This document shows positions 31,777-55,937 of a stretch of DNA of 64,000 bases, piece after piece; positions within the stretch are counted from its first letter, which is position 1, and each line of letters begins with the position of its first letter. The notes below the pieces were generated by a model. The model made no database searches, was not told where the DNA came from, and was given only the letters and a program-made list of their open reading frames with translations. The translations under genes and the position numbers were made by a program. The stretch is taken from NCBI GenBank assembly GCA_963990035.1, contig CAXDMJ010000002.1:3441-67440 (forward strand), given 5' to 3'. The DNA is from an uncultured Candidatus Poseidoniales archaeon. Lineage in GTDB: Archaea > Thermoplasmatota > Poseidoniia > Poseidoniales > Thalassarchaeaceae.

Positions 31777-32023
31777 TAAGAAAGCCCGCGAGATTGGATG
31801 ATGAATAAGGAGGAGTTGAATAAATTAAAAAATATTTTTTAAATTTCTTAGATAAGCGCAGTATAGCGTTTTTCATGTAATTTAGACGATTATTCAACTT
31901 ACTTTTCTTAAACATCCTTACCTCCCGAATAGATAGTTTATACATATTACAGGTGTGAGCATTTTTCGGAAAGAGAGAACAGCGGGTACTCTACAACTAA
32001 ATTTTTAAGGAAGTGAAAAGAAA

Positions 32024-33556
<1,533 letters not shown>

Positions 33557-33661
33557 TTGAAAGATTGGATAACAGATTATTTTGCTAGCCTGCAACATTG
33601 TAATGAATGCAGCGACAGACTCCCCTAGGGCGATTTAGTCCTAGGGTGAGTCGCAACATTT

Positions 33662-34666
33662 TCAAAAATCAAACAAAGTTGGTTGACTTTCAGATTTCAG
33701 TCGATTAGCATTAGCTAGCCTAGTTACTGCTCTAGATATTCTTTTTTCACTAAAACCTCTTGATTTAGCGAATACCTGAATATTTTCTTCTATTGATTTT
33801 GAGGATTCAGGCAGTGGTATAGGATGTACTGGATGTTTTGTGAATAGTGCTCTTATCTCTTCTAGATTTTCTGGTAAATCAAACTCCTTGGCAATTGAAA
33901 CTTCTTCCATTGTCCCATGCTTCTTAATTAACTTCAATCCTGTTTTTGGACCTATACCCTTTATTCCAGGATGGAAATCTGTTCCAATCATAATACCCAG
34001 GTCAACTAATTGCTCATACGTTATTTCATGCATTTCCAGCATTTCACTTAGAATAATTTTTTCTGCTTGTAAGACTCTTCCGAATTTACGTGTACCATGA
34101 GATGTAAGATTTCGAATCATTATAGGTGCACCATAAAGCAGAGTATCCCAATCTTGACTAGCCACTGCAAAGACTTCGTTATTTCTACAACGTACTGCTG
34201 CAGCGCCCTCTGCTTCCATTGGTGCTTCTAACCAAGTAACTCCCAAGCAATCAAATAATTCTTTAGTTTCTGCAACCATTTCCCTAGTATATTCTGCAGT
34301 TTGTGGTCCTAATTTTTTGGCGGCAACCATATCTCCAGCCTCAATAGCTGCTTCCCATTTTACAACTGCGTTAATTTTTCTTTCTTTCCTCCCTCCTAAT
34401 GTTTCCATCTTTAGTTGATGTGGTTTTCCATCAAAAATGAAAACAGGATCAATCCCTTCTTCAATCATTATTGTTGCTCTATCTAAGAATCCCATAAGAT
34501 GTGCTACTGGCTTATTATTGTAGGATAATGGTTTCCCATCTTGGCCCGTTAGACTAGTGATAAACTGATAGGCATTAAGGAATACATCTATGGCAACCTT
34601 TTGACCCTTTAGTTCGCTAAAATTGATAGATTGTGCTGGTGCTAAGTCTCTCAAATTACAGCCCAT
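33662..34666 (-). CDS. fen: Flap endonuclease 1 (FEN-1)
   Basis: 334 aa. N-terminal 'FSELKGQKVAIDVFLNAYQFI' and the FEN-1 'GIGPKTGLKLIKKHG' H3TH region. Confidence 0.9.
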   Translation of the reverse strand: MGCNLRDLAPAQSINFSELKGQKVAIDVFLNAYQFITSLTGQDGKPLSYNNKPVAHLMGFLDRATIMIEEGIDPVFIFDGKPHQLKMETLGGRKERKINAVVKWEAAIEAGDMVAAKKLGPQTAEYTREMVAETKELFDCLGVTWLEAPMEAEGAAAVRCRNNEVFAVASQDWDTLLYGAPIMIRNLTSHGTRKFGRVLQAEKIILSEMLEMHEITYEQLVDLGIMIGTDFHPGIKGIGPKTGLKLIKKHGTMEEVSIAKEFDLPENLEEIRALFTKHPVHPIPLPESSKSIEENIQVFAKSRGFSEKRISRAVTRLANANRLKSESQPTLFDF

Positions 34667-35919: not shown

Positions 35920-35994
35920 GGGCTGTTAGTTTAGCGGATAAAATGGGGGGTTTCGGACCCCTTGCCCCGGGTTCGAATCCTGGACGGCCCGCCA
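35920..35994 (+). tRNA. tRNA-Arg (anticodon UCG), 75 nt with encoded CCA
   Basis: Hand-folded cloverleaf. Acceptor GGGCTGT/ACGGCCC (one G-U pair), anticodon stem GGGGG/CCCCT, loop 'TTTCGGA', T-arm CCGGG-TTCGAAT-CCTGG, discriminator G. Confidence 0.85.
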
Positions 35995-38330: not shown

Positions 38331-38416
38331 TGGCGCCGAGAGAGGGATTTGAACCCCCGAGTCCTATGGACAGTGGATTTCAAATCCACCGCAATACCGG
38401 GCTATGCGATCTCGGC
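38331..38416 (-). tRNA. tRNA-Ser (anticodon UGA), 86 nt with long variable arm and encoded CCA
   Basis: The reverse complement folds as acceptor GCCGAGA/TCTCGGC, anticodon stem GTGGA/TCCAC with loop 'TTTGAAA', a variable arm with GTCC/GGAC stem, and T-arm GGGGG-TTCAAAT-CCCTC. Discriminator G. Confidence 0.85.
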
Positions 38417-46932: not shown

Positions 46933-47880
46933 TTATTCCAATTCGGTTAAATCAACAAACTCAATATCATTTTCTAATAAATCATCAGCGCTAATTTCAC
47001 TTTCATCATTTTGAAGTTTAATATTTTCAACTCTCATAATCATAGATTCTAATTCTGAAGACCTAACCTCAGTATCTGGTTTTGCCTCTATTAATGCAGT
47101 AACAGCCCTCCCCAAAGCTCTCTCGACTGCTGGTGCATTTCTATCTAGAAGTGCCGCTCTGGCATCCCCTATAGCAAATTTTGCTGCATCTAAGAGTTCT
47201 TCAATTTCTTTATCAGTTCCGATTAGAGATTTGATAGATTCTTCAACTATTTTTATTTCTTCTTCCATTTCATCACGTGCATATTTAACTAAATCTTGCC
47301 AGCATTGTCCATTCTCAATTATTGTAGCATTTGTTTTATTTTCAAATTTCCTTATTCTTGTTGCTTCCCATGGATTTCTACCCAATGACGCCATAATATC
47401 ATGTACGCATCTTGCTCTCAATGATAGTGGGCCTGTTAATTCAATCTGATTGTAGAAGCATTTAGAAAATAGACCAAAACCCCAATATGAGTTACTTGTT
47501 ATCTTCATTCTAAGTTCTCCCGATGCTGAACTCAATGTCCATTTCTGTTCATCATATCCAGATTGTTCAATAAGTTTAGGCGGGTCATGAGGTCCTAATG
47601 ACCTGAGAGATACATTAGCAATATCTCCAAGGAATATTTTTCTTTTCTTATTGTTCAAGCTAATCATTCGAATAAATCCTTCTTCATCGATCGCCATCTG
47701 TGGCTCTCCTGAAATTACTTGAGCGTACAGTAAACTACTATTTGGGTCACAACCAATAGGTTTTCTGGAACCAGACTGCTCTTCCACGATTATCCGTACT
47801 AATACCTGAACATCAAGTCGACTGATAAATGTATTAATTTTTGTGAAGTAATGATGGCAACTGCTAAGTCCCGTCGTCAA
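46933..47880 (-). CDS. Hypothetical protein; true start probably the internal Met at 47697 (~254 aa) with an acidic helical C-terminus
   Basis: The first 61 codons of the ORF look non-native. From 'MAIDEEGFIRMISL' onward the sequence is protein-like. I recognise no family. Confidence 0.4.
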   Translation of the reverse strand: MTTGLSSCHHYFTKINTFISRLDVQVLVRIIVEEQSGSRKPIGCDPNSSLLYAQVISGEPQMAIDEEGFIRMISLNNKKRKIFLGDIANVSLRSLGPHDPPKLIEQSGYDEQKWTLSSASGELRMKITSNSYWGFGLFSKCFYNQIELTGPLSLRARCVHDIMASLGRNPWEATRIRKFENKTNATIIENGQCWQDLVKYARDEMEEEIKIVEESIKSLIGTDKEIEELLDAAKFAIGDARAALLDRNAPAVERALGRAVTALIEAKPDTEVRSSELESMIMRVENIKLQNDESEISADDLLENDIEFVDLTELE

Positions 47881-48087: not shown

Positions 48088-49212
48088 TCAGTCTACTATC
48101 TGTAGATTTTCTTGAATATCTTTAGGTGAAGAATCTTCGTCAGATTCTAGTTCAGATATACTTGGAGAAGATTGTGCTCGATGATATATTTCTCTCAGAG
48201 TTTGGTCACCAATCTCTAAATATACTCTCGTAGTTGAGATATTAGCATGACCTAAAAGTCTCTGTATTGTCACTAAATCTGCCCCTCTTTCTAGTAATCC
48301 TGTAGCAAAAGAATGTCTTAGTACATGGGGGCTAAGTCTTGTTCTAGGAATATCAGAGGCATCAGCAATACGATCTAGTAGTTTCTGAACTGAGCGAGGA
48401 TTCAATCTTCTACTCCTACTTGAAAAGAATAAAGATCTTTCATCTTCTTTTCTAACGCAAGATTTTAGTCTTGCATTTCTTATTGGTCTCCAAGCATCGA
48501 GTGCGTTTAATGTGGCATTGGTGAAAAGAACCGTGCGATCTTTTTCTCCTTTCCCACCTATCACTAGTGCAGATAAATCATCCAAATCGACGTCATCTAG
48601 ATCTAAATTACAGATTTCTGAGCACCTTAATCCAGTATCTAACATCATTGTAATTATTGGAAATGCTATTGGGTCTTCTGATCGAGTAGCAGCGAGTCTT
48701 ACTTTTTTCAAATCACTCTTACCTAAAGTTCGAGGAAGAGATCTTGATCTAGCAGGTCTTTGAATCCATTCAGGTATCGAGTATCCTAACCATTTGAGTA
48801 GATGTGTTACTGCTGCGATTCTTGCATTAATAGTTGCTGGACGTAAATTTCCAATAGTGTTTAACCAAGAATCAATTCTCCCATTATTGGGATTAATTCT
48901 TGTAAATAATTCTGAAACTCGAAATTCTTTTACTACATCCCATAATTCATTTTCTTCATCCGGTAGTGATGTAATTGTATATGTTTTAGCTGCCACAACA
49001 TATGCTCTAATTGTATGTTCACTTTTCTTTTCAGTTCTTAATTGTTGGAGCCAACAATCAAACCAAGGTAATAGTGCCAATCTCTGAAGACGTTGAGGGA
49101 GATGTTTTGTATGAATTAATAATTCAGTACTATTCAAATATGGTTCTTCAGTAAGGCTTTTTAGCGCCTGAGAATTCTCCATTCTTTCATTCTGTTTAGT
49201 CAATTCCCTCAC
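48088..49212 (-). CDS. xerA: Tyrosine recombinase, XerA/XerC-D-like
   Basis: C-terminal catalytic 'HVLRHSFATGLLERGADLVTIQRLLGHANISTTRVYLEI' (R..H..R..Y). Confidence 0.85.
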   Translation of the reverse strand: MRELTKQNERMENSQALKSLTEEPYLNSTELLIHTKHLPQRLQRLALLPWFDCWLQQLRTEKKSEHTIRAYVVAAKTYTITSLPDEENELWDVVKEFRVSELFTRINPNNGRIDSWLNTIGNLRPATINARIAAVTHLLKWLGYSIPEWIQRPARSRSLPRTLGKSDLKKVRLAATRSEDPIAFPIITMMLDTGLRCSEICNLDLDDVDLDDLSALVIGGKGEKDRTVLFTNATLNALDAWRPIRNARLKSCVRKEDERSLFFSSRSRRLNPRSVQKLLDRIADASDIPRTRLSPHVLRHSFATGLLERGADLVTIQRLLGHANISTTRVYLEIGDQTLREIYHRAQSSPSISELESDEDSSPKDIQENLQIVD

Positions 49213-49349: not shown

Positions 49350-50306
49350 TCATGATTCTGATAAACCAGTGGTCTTGTCAAAGTTGAGCCCTTGTTCTTT
49401 GATAGAAGAATCAATATTTTCTTGTTTTAATTCTTTTAGTAAGTAATCCATTCTTTCTGTTACTGCACCTGCAACATTTATTCCTGATGCTTTCTCAATA
49501 CCTTCTAAACCAGGACTTGAATTAACTTCCAATACAAGCGGCCCTCTTTTTGATTCTAGCATGTCTACTCCTGCGACTTCAAGCCCCAAAATTTTTGCTG
49601 CTTTGATAGCGATTTTCTCAAATTCATCACTAATTTCTATTTTTTCTACGCTTCCACCTAAGTGGAAATTTGAACGAAACTCATTTCCATGAGCTTTTCT
49701 TCTCATACAGGCTACTACTTTTCCACCCACTACCAATGCTCGAATATCTTTCCCATGAGATTCCTCAATATATTCTTGAACTAAAGGCCCCATATCTCTT
49801 TCTAACATCTGATATACTAGTTGTTTTGCATGTTGTTCAGTTTGTGCTAGGAAAACACCTGCTCCATGTGTTCCTTCAGTTGCTTTTACTACACAAGGAG
49901 TCCCTCCTACTCTAGTAATTGCTCTGTTTGTATCTTCCCATGAATTTACTTGAACAGTTATAGGTACAGGGATGTTTCCAGACGACATCATTTGACATGC
50001 AATTAATTTATCTCTACTGCTTCTAATCCCCTCACTAGAATTCATCACAATGATACCGATTTTTTCAAATTCTAAAACTTTGTCACAGCCTTTATTTGTA
50101 ATTGAATAACCTATCCTTGGAATTACTGCATCGCACTCAAGTGGCCACGACCTATACAAAAGTCCCTCTTCTGACGAACCTGCACCTGAGATACGTAACG
50201 GATCTACGACTTTCACCACCCAACCCAACTTCTCAGCCTCTTCTACAAGACGTTTCGTGGAGTATAATTGTGGGCCGCGAGATAGAATCACTACAACAGG
50301 GTCCAT
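49350..50306 (-). CDS. RimK-family ATP-grasp ligase (alpha-L-glutamate ligase-like)
   Basis: 318 aa with the RimK/LysX-type N-terminal region and an ATP-grasp core ('GKVVACMRRKA...FRSNFHLGG...VAGVDMLE'). Confidence 0.75.
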   Translation of the reverse strand: MDPVVVILSRGPQLYSTKRLVEEAEKLGWVVKVVDPLRISGAGSSEEGLLYRSWPLECDAVIPRIGYSITNKGCDKVLEFEKIGIIVMNSSEGIRSSRDKLIACQMMSSGNIPVPITVQVNSWEDTNRAITRVGGTPCVVKATEGTHGAGVFLAQTEQHAKQLVYQMLERDMGPLVQEYIEESHGKDIRALVVGGKVVACMRRKAHGNEFRSNFHLGGSVEKIEISDEFEKIAIKAAKILGLEVAGVDMLESKRGPLVLEVNSSPGLEGIEKASGINVAGAVTERMDYLLKELKQENIDSSIKEQGLNFDKTTGLSES

Positions 50307-50404: not shown

Positions 50405-52714
50405 TTGAAAGACTCGCCTATTGGACTAGGCCTGTTAACTATGGTAGACGGCGAGTCTTTTAGCTTCGACTCACTATCGAAAATGAAGGTTTCTGAGTTA
50501 AGAGAGATATGTAAAAAAGGGCAATTATTAATATCTGGTAACAAGGCAGAGTTAATATTTAGAATTCTTGAAAATACTTCTTCTCCACAGGACAATGAAG
50601 AACTATTTCTTGATGAAGAAAATATTGTGTTGGAAAGTCCCCAAACTACGATTCCTGAAATTAAAGATACAGCGCGTTCTTCTAGAGAAATTGATGATGC
50701 AATAGATCGTCTAATCTCACGTGTTGATGATAAAGAAAGTCTAATCATAGATGAAAATCCCGAAAATTCTATTTTGAATGATGAAATTATGGATGCAGAG
50801 ATATTTGATGCAGAAATTATTGAAGAAGTAGGGAATGAATTAGATGAAAATCCCGAACCATCTTTAATTCTTGAAGAAAAAGATCCTTGGTCTAGTAATA
50901 TGGTAGAAGAAAAGAAAGTAGAGTTAGAAAATTTAAGCGTGGATATAGAGGAACCATCATTTACTATTACAATTCCATCATTAGATATTTTCAAGAAGTA
51001 TTGGCAGCAAATATCTTCTATATTCGTAGTTATTTTATTAATTGGTGCTGGTGTAGTTTATCTTCTCTCAGCCGATTCGTCATTTCAAGCTCGACCAGTA
51101 AATTATGGTGATTCGATGACATTCACTTTGAGTGATGGAGAAATAATCTTAGATGGTGATGAAATGGTTTCTTTACTAAGAGATAATTTGCCAGATACTG
51201 CAATTCAGGATGCATGTAATCGATTAACTGTGGATATTGTAGGTACAGGCTCTATTACAATTATAGAAGGGGATGACTCTCAAATAACCCATCCTTTAGA
51301 TAAACAATCTTCTAATCCCGATTATTCTGGTACTATTGATGCTAAAGATGCCTATGGACGTTCTCACCTCACAGTTCAACAACAAATTACACATGATCTT
51401 GATATTGATCTAGAGGGTAAAACTTGGAAAGATACTAATGTTTGCGGAAATATAGGATGGTCATTACCTGGTAATGAGCTTTTAATGACTACAAATCTCT
51501 ATGATGAGTTAGCGGAAAGTAGCCTTCTAAGATCTGAATCTATAATTTCTTTTACTGATTCTGATGGAGATACAACAAATGCAAATATTGTAACTTTTGG
51601 TGCTGATGGTTTTGGTAATCTAGATGGCATAGCCCCGATATTGACATTCCCCCTATCTCCTATTGAATTATATGATTTCTTTGGAAGTATTAAGTTACAA
51701 TCCGGAATGACTTCGGAGTCAATATCTGATTGGAATAATGATTGGCAATGGACAGTTGGTTCTGAGCAGAATAATGCTGAGCACGGTCTTGTGTATCCAG
51801 TAAAAATTATTCATGAAGAGATTGAAAGATGCCTTGGTAGAATACATATAGATATTTTAGTTAAAAATGGGATTCCTTGGGCTGTTGAACAAGAGGTAGA
51901 TATTTTGATTGATAAAGATGAGAGTACATCTGATTGTAGTTTCATTGAAAGTACTGCGACAGATGCAGCACTTCCAGAAGGATCTCTGACAATTAAAATG
52001 AAAATGAGTGAAATATCATCAGATTCAGGTTCTAAGTCAATACCTTGGGGTTCAGTCTATGCTGGTCGACCAGGTATTGGTGAAGATAAACTAAGTCCGA
52101 CTGCAAAGAAAGATTGGTCAACTGCTATATGGGATGAATCAGAAATTAGATTATTCAGTATAGAAGATGCATTAAACTGTCTACGTACGAATTATTCCAG
52201 TCGAGATATTTCTGTTGCAATTGATAGTGATGGATATATCTGGCAGGGAACATATGGCGTGACTGATTTTGAAGAATGGAATTTATCTTGGGTCCGCTCT
52301 GATGAAACTTCAGGTTGGGCAATAGTTAGTTTATCTAATAATGAATGCTCTTTTGATGATGAAGGACGCAATGATGGTGAGATTACTTGGAATCAAGATG
52401 CTATACCCTCTACTCACACCTTAAATAAATTAGAAAATAGAATTCTTAATACTAATCGTTATCAAGATTTAGCCAGTTCTCTAGGCTCATCCTCATCGTG
52501 GTTTGAAGATACTAATTACGGTTACAGAGTTTCCGTTTCAGAAGATAATGATCTCTTCTCATTCCTTCCAGGAGATTTAACTGAAGGACAAGTTACAATT
52601 ATTGGAAGTAGAGAGTGGACTGAATCTAATCGAGAACATAATATAAACTTCGCAATGGATGCTCAAACAGGTCGGATGCTTGCTTGGGCAGAAATCATTG
52701 GCTCATCTCAGTAA
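50405..52714 (+). CDS. Membrane protein with N-terminal cytoplasmic SAP/HeH DNA-binding motif, acidic linker, one TM helix and a ~550-aa extracellular domain
   Basis: 'LSKMKVSELREICKKGQLLISGNKAELIFRIL' fits the SAP consensus L..L.V.ELR.....RGL...G.K..LI.RL. TM helix 'ISSIFVVILLIGAGVVYLLSA'. Its 3' end overlaps the parA ORF. Confidence 0.7.
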   Translation: MKDSPIGLGLLTMVDGESFSFDSLSKMKVSELREICKKGQLLISGNKAELIFRILENTSSPQDNEELFLDEENIVLESPQTTIPEIKDTARSSREIDDAIDRLISRVDDKESLIIDENPENSILNDEIMDAEIFDAEIIEEVGNELDENPEPSLILEEKDPWSSNMVEEKKVELENLSVDIEEPSFTITIPSLDIFKKYWQQISSIFVVILLIGAGVVYLLSADSSFQARPVNYGDSMTFTLSDGEIILDGDEMVSLLRDNLPDTAIQDACNRLTVDIVGTGSITIIEGDDSQITHPLDKQSSNPDYSGTIDAKDAYGRSHLTVQQQITHDLDIDLEGKTWKDTNVCGNIGWSLPGNELLMTTNLYDELAESSLLRSESIISFTDSDGDTTNANIVTFGADGFGNLDGIAPILTFPLSPIELYDFFGSIKLQSGMTSESISDWNNDWQWTVGSEQNNAEHGLVYPVKIIHEEIERCLGRIHIDILVKNGIPWAVEQEVDILIDKDESTSDCSFIESTATDAALPEGSLTIKMKMSEISSDSGSKSIPWGSVYAGRPGIGEDKLSPTAKKDWSTAIWDESEIRLFSIEDALNCLRTNYSSRDISVAIDSDGYIWQGTYGVTDFEEWNLSWVRSDETSGWAIVSLSNNECSFDDEGRNDGEITWNQDAIPSTHTLNKLENRILNTNRYQDLASSLGSSSSWFEDTNYGYRVSVSEDNDLFSFLPGDLTEGQVTIIGSREWTESNREHNINFAMDAQTGRMLAWAEIIGSSQ

Positions 52715-53736
52715 CTATAGAATTCACTATGTTGATTGTCTGTGATAGCGGCACATTCAATTTCCTTCTAAGCGCCCAAGGCGCTTGTATGTCCATTAAT
52801 GATGATGATGTTCGGCTACCAAAAGTCGAAAAAGTTCCATTAATAATTGATGTAGAATTTATAGAAGATGAAGTAGTCAATTCCTCCTCTGACAATGTCA
52901 ATCCAGTTAATACTCAGAAAACAAGTCGCCCATTAGATTTACCATTCCCGATTCCTACTCCTGAAGGTAGAGCTAGAATCGTCACTGTCATTAATCAGAA
53001 GGGAGGTGTTGGAAAAACAACGACAGTCATTAATATTGGATCTCAACTTGCTTTAAGTGGACATAGAGTATTGGTAGTAGATGCAGATTCTCAGGGTAAT
53101 TGTGCTACTGGATTAGGGGTAGATAAAAGTAAGGTTAAACATACAACTAGAGACCTAATATTGTCTCCTGAAACTGCAGTTACAGCTCGCCATGCGACAG
53201 CAGTTGATGGATTGCATATGATTGTTGGAGATCGCAGTTTAGTTGGTTTAGAGCAAGAAATGTTGCGACAGTTAGGCAGAGAAAGGAGATTAGCTGAGGC
53301 TTTAGAGCCATTATTACCACATTATGATATTGTGATAATAGATACTCCTCCATCATTAGGTTTAGTGACAATCAATGCTTTAGTTGCCAGCGATGGTGTC
53401 CTAATACCAGTTCAAACTGAATACTTTGCTTTGGAAGGATTGGCAATGTTAGCAGGAACAATTAGAGAGGTTAGAAATCTACTCAACCCGCGATTAGGTG
53501 TTGATGGTGTTTTGCTAACTATGCATGCGAGTACTCTTCTAAATCAACAGGTAGCTTCAGAAATTCTAGAACATTTACCTGAGTTTGTAATACAACCAGC
53601 AATCCGTCGAAATATCAAATTGGCTGAAGCACCCAGTCACGGAGTCCCAATCCATCTACACGATCCGAATAGTAATGGTGGCCAAGATTATCAAGGAGTT
53701 TCTCATTCCTTGGAAAAAAGATGGGGACTTATTTAG
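52684..53736 (+). CDS. parA: ParA/Soj-type partition ATPase (start may be Met at 52789)
   Basis: Deviant Walker A 'NQKGGVGKTTTVINIG', 'VVDADSQGN' and 'IIDTPPSLG'. Confidence 0.9.
   Translation: MGRNHWLISVTIEFTMLIVCDSGTFNFLLSAQGACMSINDDDVRLPKVEKVPLIIDVEFIEDEVVNSSSDNVNPVNTQKTSRPLDLPFPIPTPEGRARIVTVINQKGGVGKTTTVINIGSQLALSGHRVLVVDADSQGNCATGLGVDKSKVKHTTRDLILSPETAVTARHATAVDGLHMIVGDRSLVGLEQEMLRQLGRERRLAEALEPLLPHYDIVIIDTPPSLGLVTINALVASDGVLIPVQTEYFALEGLAMLAGTIREVRNLLNPRLGVDGVLLTMHASTLLNQQVASEILEHLPEFVIQPAIRRNIKLAEAPSHGVPIHLHDPNSNGGQDYQGVSHSLEKRWGLI
52771..52785 (+). promoter_or_regulatory. Perfect GC-rich palindrome AGCGCC-CAA-GGCGCT immediately 5' of the probable parA start
   Basis: The 6-bp arms are perfect and the sequence is unique in the window. 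It is a candidate operator. Confidence 0.25.
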
Positions 53737-54690
53737 ATGGTATCTAAAGGTCTAGGCCGAGGACTTGAATCTGTAGCGGAGTTAGCTAAGGATGGTCCTG
53801 ATCTTTCATCTTACGTTTCCTCAGACTCTATGCAGCCCGTTGACTCTCCCAGAACCGCAGTTCTTTGGATGATATTTGGAAGTGTTTGTTTTGGAACTAT
53901 GAATGCACTTGTCAAATGGACTTCACTAAATGCAGACGTTTGGATGATTATTTTTATCCGTTCATTAGTAATTGCCGTGGCCGTTGCAATATTCGCAAGA
54001 TATCATAACACTAGCCTTCGGATGAATGACCCTAAAAAGATGTTTTTACGCTGTTTAGTAGGATTAATTGCAATGATACTTTATTTTTCTGCCCTATCTT
54101 TAATTCCTATTGGTCAAGCAGTAACATTACAATATACTGCTCCCTTATTTGTCGCACTCTTATCTGGTAGTTTAATTCGTGAAAAAGTTTCTTCTTCTGT
54201 AATAATTCTGCTAATAACTGCATTTTTTGGAATTATATTAATTGTTTCTCCAGACTTAGATAGTATAGATCCGAATGCTTTGTTAGCTCTAGGATCAGGA
54301 TTCTTTGCAGGTTTAGCTTATATTTTTGTCCGGGACTTGAGGAAGACAGATTCCCCCTCTACAGTTGTTTTTTGGTTTGCGGCTTTTTCCGTATTGGGTT
54401 CAGTAATTCAAGCAGCACCTGCTTTGTCTAGTCTTACTTGGGAAATGATTGCTGCATTAGTAGGGATTGGCGTAGGTGCAGGTGGAGGCCAAGTAGGAAT
54501 CACAATGGCTTATCACAAAGCAAATGCTGCTTGGGTCAGCGCATTCTCTTATCTTACAGTAATAATTGCAACAATATATGGTATTATTCTATTTGATGAA
54601 ATATTAACAGCAAAAATACTAATTGGAGGATTATTGATAGTCGGTTCTGGTGTTGCATTAATTTTCTTCACACCACCAACTAATAAATAG
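53737..54690 (+). CDS. EamA/DMT-family 10-TM permease with an N-terminal ParB-like ParA-interaction peptide
   Basis: N-terminal 'MVSKGLGRGLESVAELAKDG' matches the bacterial ParB/Spo0J N-terminus (compare 'GLGRGLEALL'). The rest has typical EamA repeats. The ATG directly follows the parA stop codon. Confidence 0.8.
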   Translation: MVSKGLGRGLESVAELAKDGPDLSSYVSSDSMQPVDSPRTAVLWMIFGSVCFGTMNALVKWTSLNADVWMIIFIRSLVIAVAVAIFARYHNTSLRMNDPKKMFLRCLVGLIAMILYFSALSLIPIGQAVTLQYTAPLFVALLSGSLIREKVSSSVIILLITAFFGIILIVSPDLDSIDPNALLALGSGFFAGLAYIFVRDLRKTDSPSTVVFWFAAFSVLGSVIQAAPALSSLTWEMIAALVGIGVGAGGGQVGITMAYHKANAAWVSAFSYLTVIIATIYGIILFDEILTAKILIGGLLIVGSGVALIFFTPPTNK

Positions 54691-55385: not shown

Positions 55386-55937
55386 TCAGTCGCGTCGAGT
55401 CATCAATCCTGCTATTCCTATTGCTGCCAAAGTTAGCGGCATAATGAATCCAGGCATGCTATCTTCTTCCTCTTGTGGCCAACATGAGTTATCATCTCCA
55501 CCCCAATCATTTCCATCATACCAACAATCAGACCAAATCTTCCAACCAAAACCTGTTTCCGGAACTCTTGTTGTATTCTCACTCGAGTCAATTAGATCAA
55601 TCCTCCAGTTCAAATAACTAGCACCTTCGTCAACTTCTACTATGCTTTTCCAAGTTTTATTATCCTCAGTAGTCATTTCAATAGTTTTCGGAGGATAACA
55701 AACTCCAGTATTTATGCAAACTTGTGTGATCCAATTAATATGGCTAATATTTTCAATAGCATCATCTTTGAGAGTTACAGAAATAGTAAATTCAGATTCT
55801 GCATAGGCCACATCATTCGCATCTATTGCTAAGATATTAGTTTCAGAAAGGTCAGTGCCCTCATTTAATCCACCCTCTGAAGCTGCAACATTGAATGCTA
55901 AAATAGTAACAATAGCAACTGCGACCAGTTTGTGCAT
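55386..55937 (-). CDS. Secreted protein with PGF-CTERM archaeal sorting signal
   Basis: An N-terminal signal peptide. The C-terminus 'MPGFIMPLTLAAIGIAGLMTRRD' gives PGF, a TM helix and a basic tail. Confidence 0.65.
   Translation of the reverse strand: MHKLVAVAIVTILAFNVAASEGGLNEGTDLSETNILAIDANDVAYAESEFTISVTLKDDAIENISHINWITQVCINTGVCYPPKTIEMTTEDNKTWKSIVEVDEGASYLNWRIDLIDSSENTTRVPETGFGWKIWSDCWYDGNDWGGDDNSCWPQEEEDSMPGFIMPLTLAAIGIAGLMTRRD

Follow-up and report, generated by a model that had tools for sequence, protein, structure and literature searches.

Three adjacent genes in a Marine Group IIb archaeon

The stretch of DNA analysed here, which we call the window, comprises 64 kb of contig CAXDMJ010000002.1 (positions 3,441 to 67,440), and its host is a Marine Group IIb (MGIIb)-type archaeon of the phylum Thermoplasmatota. 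The plus strand carries a trio of genes that encode, in this order, a SAP-domain membrane protein, a Soj-type ParA and a permease of the DMT/EamA type. The permease begins with a peptide resembling the one through which bacterial ParB proteins bind ParA. This combination of ParA and partner is real, conserved and apparently undescribed. We found no description of the trio in the literature on Poseidoniales ParA, ParB or Soj, on archaeal SAP proteins together with ParA, or on orphan ParAs with membrane partners, in agreement with the sequence-only reading, an earlier annotation of the same DNA that knew of no system of this composition.

The host was assigned from homologues of the permease, which their sources name Candidatus Thalassarchaeaceae, Poseidoniales or 'Marine Group II'. 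Several contigs from ocean metagenomes contain this region in identical form. A single scan of the species representatives in GTDB, with search patterns that may miss more distant permeases, yielded 80 loci, all of the Poseidoniales/MGIIb type, and the order of the trio is unchanged in every locus whose contig reaches far enough. Identities to the window range over 35-82% for the SAP gene, whose orthologues occupy the same position wherever the contig extends to it, 70-92% for parA and 64-92% for the permease gene. The synteny on which the sequence-only reading had made its case depend is thus kept across some 80 genomes at species level, as well as in a remoter lineage described below. One locus (L058, NZKZ01000064.1) is labelled 'Acidiferrobacter sp. 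isolate IN47' and has the full archaeal trio, with a permease 68% identical to that of the window; it is almost certainly a Marine Group II contig mis-binned into a bacterial metagenome-assembled genome.

Described at first as a tight three-gene operon, the locus has this character only in its second half. The TAG stop codon of parA (53734-53736) adjoins the ATG of the permease gene (53737) without a gap, exactly as had been noted, and the junction is abutting or within a few nucleotides in most relatives. The SAP gene stands apart: its reading frame stops at 52714 and the parA ATG lies at 52789, with a conserved non-coding spacer of 74 nucleotides between them. The overlap of up to 31 nucleotides once proposed for these two genes exists only for the maximal parA open reading frame, which opens at TTG 52684, whereas orthologues align from residue 1 at ATG 52789. 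For gene 1 the maximal frame (50405-52714) likewise begins with a TTG, at 50405, and the likely start is ATG 50441, also chosen by gene callers on the identical contigs.

Gene 1 (50441-52714, plus strand) was delimited from its open reading frame, the gene callers and its orthologues, and encodes a 757-residue SAP-domain type-II membrane protein. The SAP domain, of the helix-extension-helix (HeH) type, spans residues 12-44 (50474-50572) and is predicted to be cytoplasmic. It matches Pfam PF02037 with an E value of 3.8e-8 and 33.2 bits, against a gathering cut-off of 23.9, and the domain scores above the Pfam cut-off in all 20 diverse orthologues searched (best E value 2.2e-12). Searched against the PDB, a profile of the family matches solely the SAP domains of Tho1, MKL1 and Hcc-1, all of them eukaryotic; some family members are already named 'SAP domain-containing protein' by NCBI. 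A hydropathy scan gives one segment above threshold, a transmembrane helix at residues 191-209 (51011-51067) with KK on its N-terminal side. We read the product as a single-pass protein with its N-terminus inside and its C-terminus outside, so the earlier proposal of a SAP motif on a single-pass membrane protein holds. The ectodomain of about 550 residues (51068-52711) has six cysteines (259, 335, 464, 499, 580 and 636) that are invariant in the alignments, and gave no Pfam, NCBIfam or PDB sequence match. Between the SAP domain and the membrane, on the side predicted to be cytoplasmic, alignments of diverse orthologues yield the consensus motif DDAIDRLISR (residues 85-94, 50693-50722), which is visible in most lineages, with invariant residues only inside a close clade at 71-83% identity, and is followed by an acidic linker rich in EAE(V/I). 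An AlphaFold model of low confidence (predicted local distance difference test score, pLDDT, 29), for which the input homologues were all at least 69% identical, places a helix at residues 81-95 over this motif.

Gene 2 (52789-53736, plus strand), assigned by Pfam, PDB and orthologue alignment, encodes a ParA of 315 residues. Its product matches Pfam AAA_31 at 4e-53, and its best PDB matches are Myxococcus xanthus ParA (8RAY, 3.5e-58), Thermus Soj (1WCV, 1.2e-51) and Helicobacter Soj (6IUB, 3e-43). It is 44-50% identical to bacterial Soj proteins (Priestia, Parabacteroides and others). MinD structures reach only 1e-11 to 1e-14, and we reject a MinD-like identity on the difference between these values and 1e-58; the Soj-type assignment of the sequence-only reading is upheld by the same comparison (3.5e-58 for 8RAY against about 1e-14). 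The 220-residue 'SOJ protein' 7DUT, which is probably Sulfolobus SegA, matches at 1.9e-13, compared with 1e-51 to 1e-58 for bacterial Soj.

The ParA family is strongly constrained. The deviant Walker A motif KGGVGKT (residues 71-77, 52999-53019), Motif 2 (D98, D100 and N104) and the Walker B aspartate (D185) are invariant in 80/80 ParAs, and position 277, the counterpart of the nonspecific-DNA-binding R238 of M. xanthus, is a lysine or arginine. Pfam and PDB matches start only at about residue 61. They are preceded by an N-extension of about 60 residues (52789-52968) with the motifs LPxVxxAPLIIDVEFxE and ELPxSxPTPxGRARV, and within it LPKVEKVPLIIDVEF (residues 10-24, 52816-52860) is kept in lineages both with and without the permease tail considered below. 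The C-terminus (residues 309-315, 53713-53733) ends in RRW(G/S)L, and its codons may be constrained also by the translation start of the permease. Neither the extension nor the C-terminal RRW(G/S)L occurs in the four bacterial Soj proteins used for comparison.

Gene 3 (53737-54690, plus strand) encodes a permease of 317 residues, identified by Pfam, AlphaFold and Foldseek. EamA (PF00892) matches over two stretches at 5.5e-25, so that SAP, ParA and EamA, the three identities first proposed, all have profile matches. The AlphaFold model, from a 101-sequence alignment, has a pLDDT of 87.8 and ten transmembrane helices. In Foldseek it resembles SLC35B1 (TM-score 0.75-0.80) and YddG 5I20 (0.6-0.67), and the matches also include nucleotide-sugar transporters and LicB. 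Residues 1-32, directly before the first transmembrane helix, form an N-terminal tail that is modelled as disordered (pLDDT below 50) and includes a short helix (10-19). Counts of lysine and arginine in the loops, under the positive-inside rule, predict that the N-terminus is cytoplasmic.

A ParB-type motif in the permease tail

The permease N-terminus, MVSKGLGRGLESVAEL, contains KGLGRGLESVA at residues 4-14 (53746-53778), a putative ParA-binding motif recognised by its likeness to real ParB N-termini. In a 2025 survey of the ParB fold, ParB's motif for binding ParA is given as LG-R/K-GL, with the pattern (L|F|I)G[K|R]G(L|F|I) (PMC12704722). The permease, which is not a ParB, satisfies this pattern in its residues 4-13 (K-G-L-G-R-G-L-E-S-V), and GLG[RK]GL occurs once in the six-frame translation of the 64-kb window. 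For comparison we used the annotated ParB just downstream of each closest Soj gene in a plasmid collection. The N-termini of these ParBs are MAKGLGKGINALF, MAALKRSALGRGLDALI, MANNAKGLGKGLAALL and MATRNGKGLGRGLDAVF, and the permease N-terminus matches the ParB N-termini MAKGLGKGINALF, RSALGRGLDALI, AKGLGKGLAALL and GKGLGRGLDAVF. In M. xanthus ParB, residues L11, R13, L15, L18 and I19 are required for ParA binding or for stimulation of its ATPase, and a 20-mer peptide of this ParB is enough when DNA is present (PMC12462528). The permease keeps L6, R8, L10 and V13 in register with the M. xanthus motif. The ParB peptide that the sequence-only reading saw on the permease therefore stands, by the published definition and by comparison with real ParB N-termini, on a tail predicted to be cytoplasmic and disordered. 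ParB N-terminal profiles of Pfam and NCBIfam gave no match on the permease, which is expected for a motif of 6-10 residues and which we do not count against it. Searches with the 39-residue tail against PDB sequences and with the 27-residue tail (tblastn) against plasmids returned noise only, the queries being short and of low complexity.

Conservation of the motif was followed in 51 distinct DNA versions, chosen by a permissive motif pattern that excluded three lineages with degenerate motifs. The L, G, R and L of the motif are conserved in 51/51, and the residue three positions further on is always I, V, M or L. These residues are written with six leucine, four glycine and five arginine codons, and the flanking residues vary. 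Because L-G-R-x-L-x-x-hydrophobic is fixed while all synonymous codons are in use, the alignment shows purifying selection at the level of the peptide and not of the DNA.

This pattern bears on the possibility that the tail is a relic. The LGRGL peptide could be the remnant of a ParB that was transferred horizontally and then decayed, kept for a reason unrelated to ParA, in which case the trio would not be one machine. ParA would then be an orphan ATPase, partnered by the SAP protein or by an unlinked factor, or else a regulator, as Soj is on replication initiation. A relic would not be expected to hold L-G-R-x-L-x-x-hydrophobic at 51/51 with synonymous sites saturated and neighbouring residues drifting, nor to retain exactly the residues that contact ParA in M. 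xanthus, nor to last to a lineage whose permease is only 51% identical. The retained tight junction of parA and the permease gene also argues against it. We consider this explanation unlikely, and return below to the observations in its favour.

The tail contains a second motif, GPDLSSYV (residues 20-27, 53794-53817; family consensus GPDLSSF). GPDLSS(F/Y)V is conserved in 59/82 permeases, to the same degree as LGRGL, and is always lost jointly with it. Its L-x-x-F/Y spacing bears a loose resemblance, and no more, to that of clamp-binding (PIP-like) peptides.

Among the 150 best representatives of clusters at 50% identity, from 1.84 billion searched, the ParA-binding motif is confined to this permease family. 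The most distant family member (P0123) has a permease 51-52% identical to that of the window, and its lineage keeps the trio and both tail motifs with different neighbours downstream. The closest tail-less DMT protein outside the family (46% identical) is encoded after an MBL hydrolase gene, not after parA. The ParA system with an LGRGL-tailed permease has so far been seen only in the MGIIb clade of Poseidoniales.

Neither a ParB nor a centromere of the bacterial type accompanies the trio. Searches (tblastn) with four real ParBs gave nothing significant in the 64-kb window, and nothing at E<=0.01 in 87 loci, namely the window-identical contigs, the P0093 lineage and the 80 loci of the genome scan, these last covered to ±6 kb; on this point too the sequence-only reading was right. 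The parS sequence TGTTNCACGTGAAACA has 3 matches in the window at 3 mismatches, compared with 1.7 expected by chance, and none is near the trio. There are no iterated repeats around the trio. The gene downstream of parA, in the place that parB would occupy, encodes an EamA permease, not a protein with a ParB/Srx CTPase fold, a helix-turn-helix (HTH) or a dimerisation domain. Because the ParB fold and parS were looked for and not found, the trio is not a member of the type I chromosomal ParABS systems.

Candidate roles of the trio

A membrane-anchored role of the ParA system is plausible. We tentatively favour a ParA with no ParB gene in its locus and with membrane-protein partners, which would couple the nucleoid to the envelope. 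ParA-ATP dimers would coat the nucleoid. The transporter tail would bind a ParA dimer and stimulate ATP hydrolysis as the tail of ParB does, making the transporter a membrane-fixed surrogate of ParB by which ParA-coated DNA is held transiently at the membrane and ParA is released locally. The SAP protein would supply a direct, ATP-independent contact between DNA and membrane, and may associate with the transporter or with the lineage-specific N-extension of ParA. The net effect would be a chromosome coupled to the envelope, for positioning or segregation of the nucleoid. The most economical origin would be acquisition of a bacterial soj-spo0J operon by an MGIIb ancestor, after which the body of ParB was lost and its first ~15 codons became the beginning of the permease gene downstream.

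Several observations weigh against nucleoid-envelope coupling through the tail. The first concerns the site on ParA that receives the arginine of ParB. In M. xanthus ParA, Y81 is described as invariant in bacterial ParAs and is proposed to stack on the ParB arginine through a cation-pi interaction (PMC12462528). This position is an arginine in 80/80 archaeal ParAs (residue 121, 53149-53151). In the same 80, again in M. xanthus numbering, V116 is replaced by Gln and L187 by Glu, and the D110 position is Ser, Asn or Thr. The Thermus Soj alignment also has Glu at the L187 position. Elsewhere in the ParB-peptide pocket L150, L152, L192 and E117 are kept, L155 is changed to Ile and E82 to Asp, so that the picture is mixed, and the surroundings of Arg121 are still acidic (D122, D148 and E157). 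Arg121 could occupy the arginine site itself. Because the arginine-receiving site is altered in 80/80, the tail may bind in a way different from the bacterial mode, or not at all.

The second concerns loss of the tail. The whole tail, LGRGL together with GPDLSSF, is missing in 23/82 permeases. In a tree of ParA and permease, the tail-less permeases branch from within the tail-bearing ones in at least three distinct groups, which indicates that the tail is ancestral and was repeatedly lost. The tail-less lineages keep the catalytic motifs and N-extension of ParA, the SAP gene and the gene order, and within ±6 kb they contain no relocated ParA-binding motif. Because the tail was lost at least three times with ParA and the SAP gene retained, we conclude from these alignments that ParA must work without the tail in these lineages and does not strictly depend on it.

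Change in the ParA pocket could accompany tail loss, and there is some sign that it does. The L152 and L155 positions are invariant in the 57 tail-bearing ParAs and variable in the tail-less ones. However, 157 ParA columns are fixed in tail-bearing lineages, and among them 7 change in tail-less lineages, of which 2-3 are pocket positions (152, 155, 191). As the substitutions are conservative and the independent events few, the link appears suggestive and is not statistically convincing.

Three further points belong with these. The transporter core is strongly conserved, so the main job of the permease is probably transport. Synteny in Poseidoniales loci extends well past the trio, and because the wider neighbourhood is also syntenic in the family, gene order by itself is weak evidence. 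Finally, a promoter or operator of its own may lie in the spacer that divides parA from the SAP gene.

Much of this speaks for the relic explanation introduced above. Three tail losses have had no visible effect on ParAs that are 70-78% identical to that of the window and have their catalytic motifs intact, and the altered arginine-receiving pocket and the extended synteny point the same way. The N-extension and the C-terminal RRW(G/S)L of ParA could, on that account, serve other partners.

One feature of some tail-less loci can be recorded here. In L052, L067 and L079, all tail-less, the acidic linker of the SAP protein contains a Trp-rich insert, (I/L)P(E/D)GWT(L/I)(E/Q)QW(A/N)HYGxxWL. There is no clear link of the insert with tail loss, because L032 and L059 are also tail-less and do not have it.

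If the tail does bind ParA, the same interaction would serve equally well for positioning a protein cargo. The nucleoid would then be a mere track for ParA, as for McdA and PpfA, used to space a membrane complex along the cell so that neither daughter goes without it. The permease would form this complex, perhaps joined by the SAP protein with its large ectodomain, and the cargo would be membrane machinery rather than the chromosome. Arguing for this, ParA/MinD ATPases place many protein cargos through N-terminal peptides of adaptors (PMC11407121), and strong constraint on the permease core and the ectodomain suggests functional machines rather than mere anchors. Counter to this, cargo positioning has no need of a SAP DNA-binding domain on the upstream protein, and tail loss in three clades counts equally against it. 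The cargos known to ride on the nucleoid are cytoplasmic, such as carboxysomes and cytoplasmic chemoreceptor clusters, and are not single polytopic transporters. We judge cargo positioning to be somewhat unlikely, and nucleoid-envelope coupling remains the reading that we prefer.

A role without mechanical positioning of DNA can also be imagined, in which ParA binds the tail and thereby regulates the permease, or the state of the permease controls ParA, linking export or import of a metabolite to the state of the nucleoid or the cell cycle. The permease is an intact DMT-fold transporter and the tail sits just before its first transmembrane helix, both of which fit such regulation. The SAP-domain membrane protein would be left unexplained, and a disordered tail of about 35 residues resembles a tether more than a gate. 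We know of no transporter that is gated by a ParA-type ATPase, and we regard this explanation as very improbable.

By analogy, the systems that the trio would most resemble in operation are ParABS and the ParA/MinD cargo systems with N-terminal partner peptides. With bacterial ParABS (Soj-Spo0J-parS) it shares a Soj-type ParA (44-50% identity, all motifs present), a partner gene directly downstream and a partner N-terminus that bears an LG(R/K)GL motif followed by hydrophobic residues. It differs in that the partner is a ten-helix DMT transporter that has no ParB/Srx CTPase fold, HTH or dimerisation domain, in its archaeal host, in the lack of a parS found in the window, and in a ParA with a 60-residue N-extension and an arginine in place of the pocket tyrosine. 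In McdA-McdB, PpfA-TlpT, ParC-ParP and PomZ-PomX, as in the trio, a nucleoid-binding ATPase is contacted by the N-terminal region of a partner encoded by an adjacent gene (PMC11407121). However, those systems use their own family-specific peptides, whereas the trio has the motif of chromosomal ParB itself, on a transporter that is integral to the membrane and is accompanied by a SAP-domain membrane protein.

Coupling of DNA to the membrane has parallels of its own. Noc of Bacillus and RocS of Streptococcus pneumoniae share the concept of a protein that binds both DNA and membrane and operates with Par components; RocS, as outlined in PMC13042908, interacts with ParB and joins chromosomal DNA to the membrane. 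In the Bacillales loci examined, noc lies beside soj-spo0J. Noc and RocS are peripheral proteins with amphipathic helices, and Noc is a ParB paralogue that has no ParA-binding motif. In the trio, by contrast, DNA would be bound by the SAP domain of an integral membrane protein, and a separate transporter bears the ParA-binding motif. Eukaryotic HeH/LEM and SAP proteins (Heh1/Src1, Heh2 and MAN1) are integral membrane proteins with an N-terminal, DNA-facing helix-extension-helix DNA-binding motif. The product of gene 1 shares the N-terminal SAP/HeH motif on a membrane protein, and the solved SAP domains that match it best are those of eukaryotic Tho1 and MKL1. Nothing other than the small SAP fold points to common descent, and the gene 1 product is a single-pass protein with a large cysteine-rich ectodomain and a link to ParA.

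Two further ATPase systems offer looser comparisons. MinD-MinE shares the ATPase superfamily and an involvement of the membrane. MinD binds the membrane by a C-terminal amphipathic helix and MinE is soluble, whereas in the trio the ATPase is Soj-like with its DNA-binding residue kept and the proposed activator is embedded in the membrane. The archaeal systems SegAB and pNOB8 ParA-AspA-ParB likewise have an archaeal ParA-type ATPase, a downstream partner and a role in DNA segregation, as far as they are set out in PMC8682754. Their partners are soluble, site-specific DNA-binding proteins, whereas those in the trio are membrane proteins.

What the trio could mean depends largely on the peptide. 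A very abundant family of ocean archaea keeps a bacterial-type ParA under strong selection and the ParB activating peptide on a membrane transporter. A functional peptide would make the ParA-binding motif a portable module that can turn an unrelated membrane protein into a partner of ParA, and would point to an easy way of rewiring partition systems once they have been transferred horizontally. Should the peptide prove inactive, the striking retention of the motif still wants another explanation.

Chromosome segregation in Euryarchaeota-type archaea is largely unknown. According to the 2025 ParB-fold survey, chromosomal ParABS is essentially absent from archaea (PMC12704722). A far-reaching version of our preferred reading is that the MGIIb chromosome is segregated or positioned by a ParB-free, membrane-anchored machine composed of an acquired Soj-type ParA, a grafted ParB peptide and a SAP protein holding DNA. 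We consider this doubtful, less probable than coupling of nucleoid and envelope as such. If true, it would be a living example of the membrane attachment that the replicon model proposes, and the HeH/LEM tethers that hold eukaryotic chromatin to membranes would have a prokaryotic counterpart. It would also provide testable candidates for nucleoid-membrane coupling in archaea, in the form of a 20-mer peptide, a soluble ATPase and a 45-residue SAP domain.

The spacer upstream of parA and the neighbouring genes

DNA conservation in the spacer between the SAP gene and parA is above that of the flanking coding sequence. Two elements stand out, neither assigned to a strand. Box A, GCGGCACATTCAAT (52748-52761), is defined by invariant columns across 34 diverse lineages, with the family consensus CG[GT]CA[CT][AG]TT[CG]AAC about 27 nucleotides before the parA ATG. 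Its palindromic core, TT-S-AA, is extended to TGTT-C-AACA in many lineages. In 74 loci it lies less than 100 nucleotides upstream of parA, elsewhere it is sporadic, and it is retained across lineages with SAP proteins merely 35-40% identical. Box B (52770-52786) is the palindrome AAGCGCC-CAA-GGCGCTT, which ends 2 nucleotides before the parA ATG and is single-copy in the 64-kb window. The palindrome is perfect in about half of the lineages, and the others keep AGCGCCG only.

From this conservation we read the spacer element as a promoter, or a site of protein binding, that serves parA and the permease gene; a single centromere-like site is also conceivable. We rejected an RNA structure, as RNAalifold gave no shared pairs and there was no Rfam match. 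A multi-copy centromere was rejected for the region seen, since box B is single-copy in 64 kb, box A is clustered upstream of parA and there are no meaningful repeats.

Divergent from the trio and upstream of it, on the minus strand, lie genes for a XerA/XerC-like tyrosine recombinase (48088-49212) and a RimK-family glutamate ligase (49350-50306). The best NCBIfam match of the recombinase is recomb_XerA_Arch, at 178 bits and under the cut-off of 220. Both genes are found beside the trio in the window-identical contigs, in a lineage at 70% identity and in the distant P0123 lineage. A chromosome-dimer resolvase beside a partition ATPase may be no coincidence.

Two other conserved neighbours, both on the minus strand, have no Pfam or NCBIfam family: one of 315 residues (46933-47880) and one of 183 residues (55386-55937), the latter with a hydrophobic stretch at both ends, which suggests a secreted or anchored protein. 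Elsewhere in the window, a 2-kb stretch (32001-34000) has a G+C content of 0.457 compared with about 0.38, a positive AT skew and no rRNA match in Rfam. Genes for tRNA-Arg(TCG) and tRNA-Ser(TGA) lie at 35920-35994 and 38331-38416.

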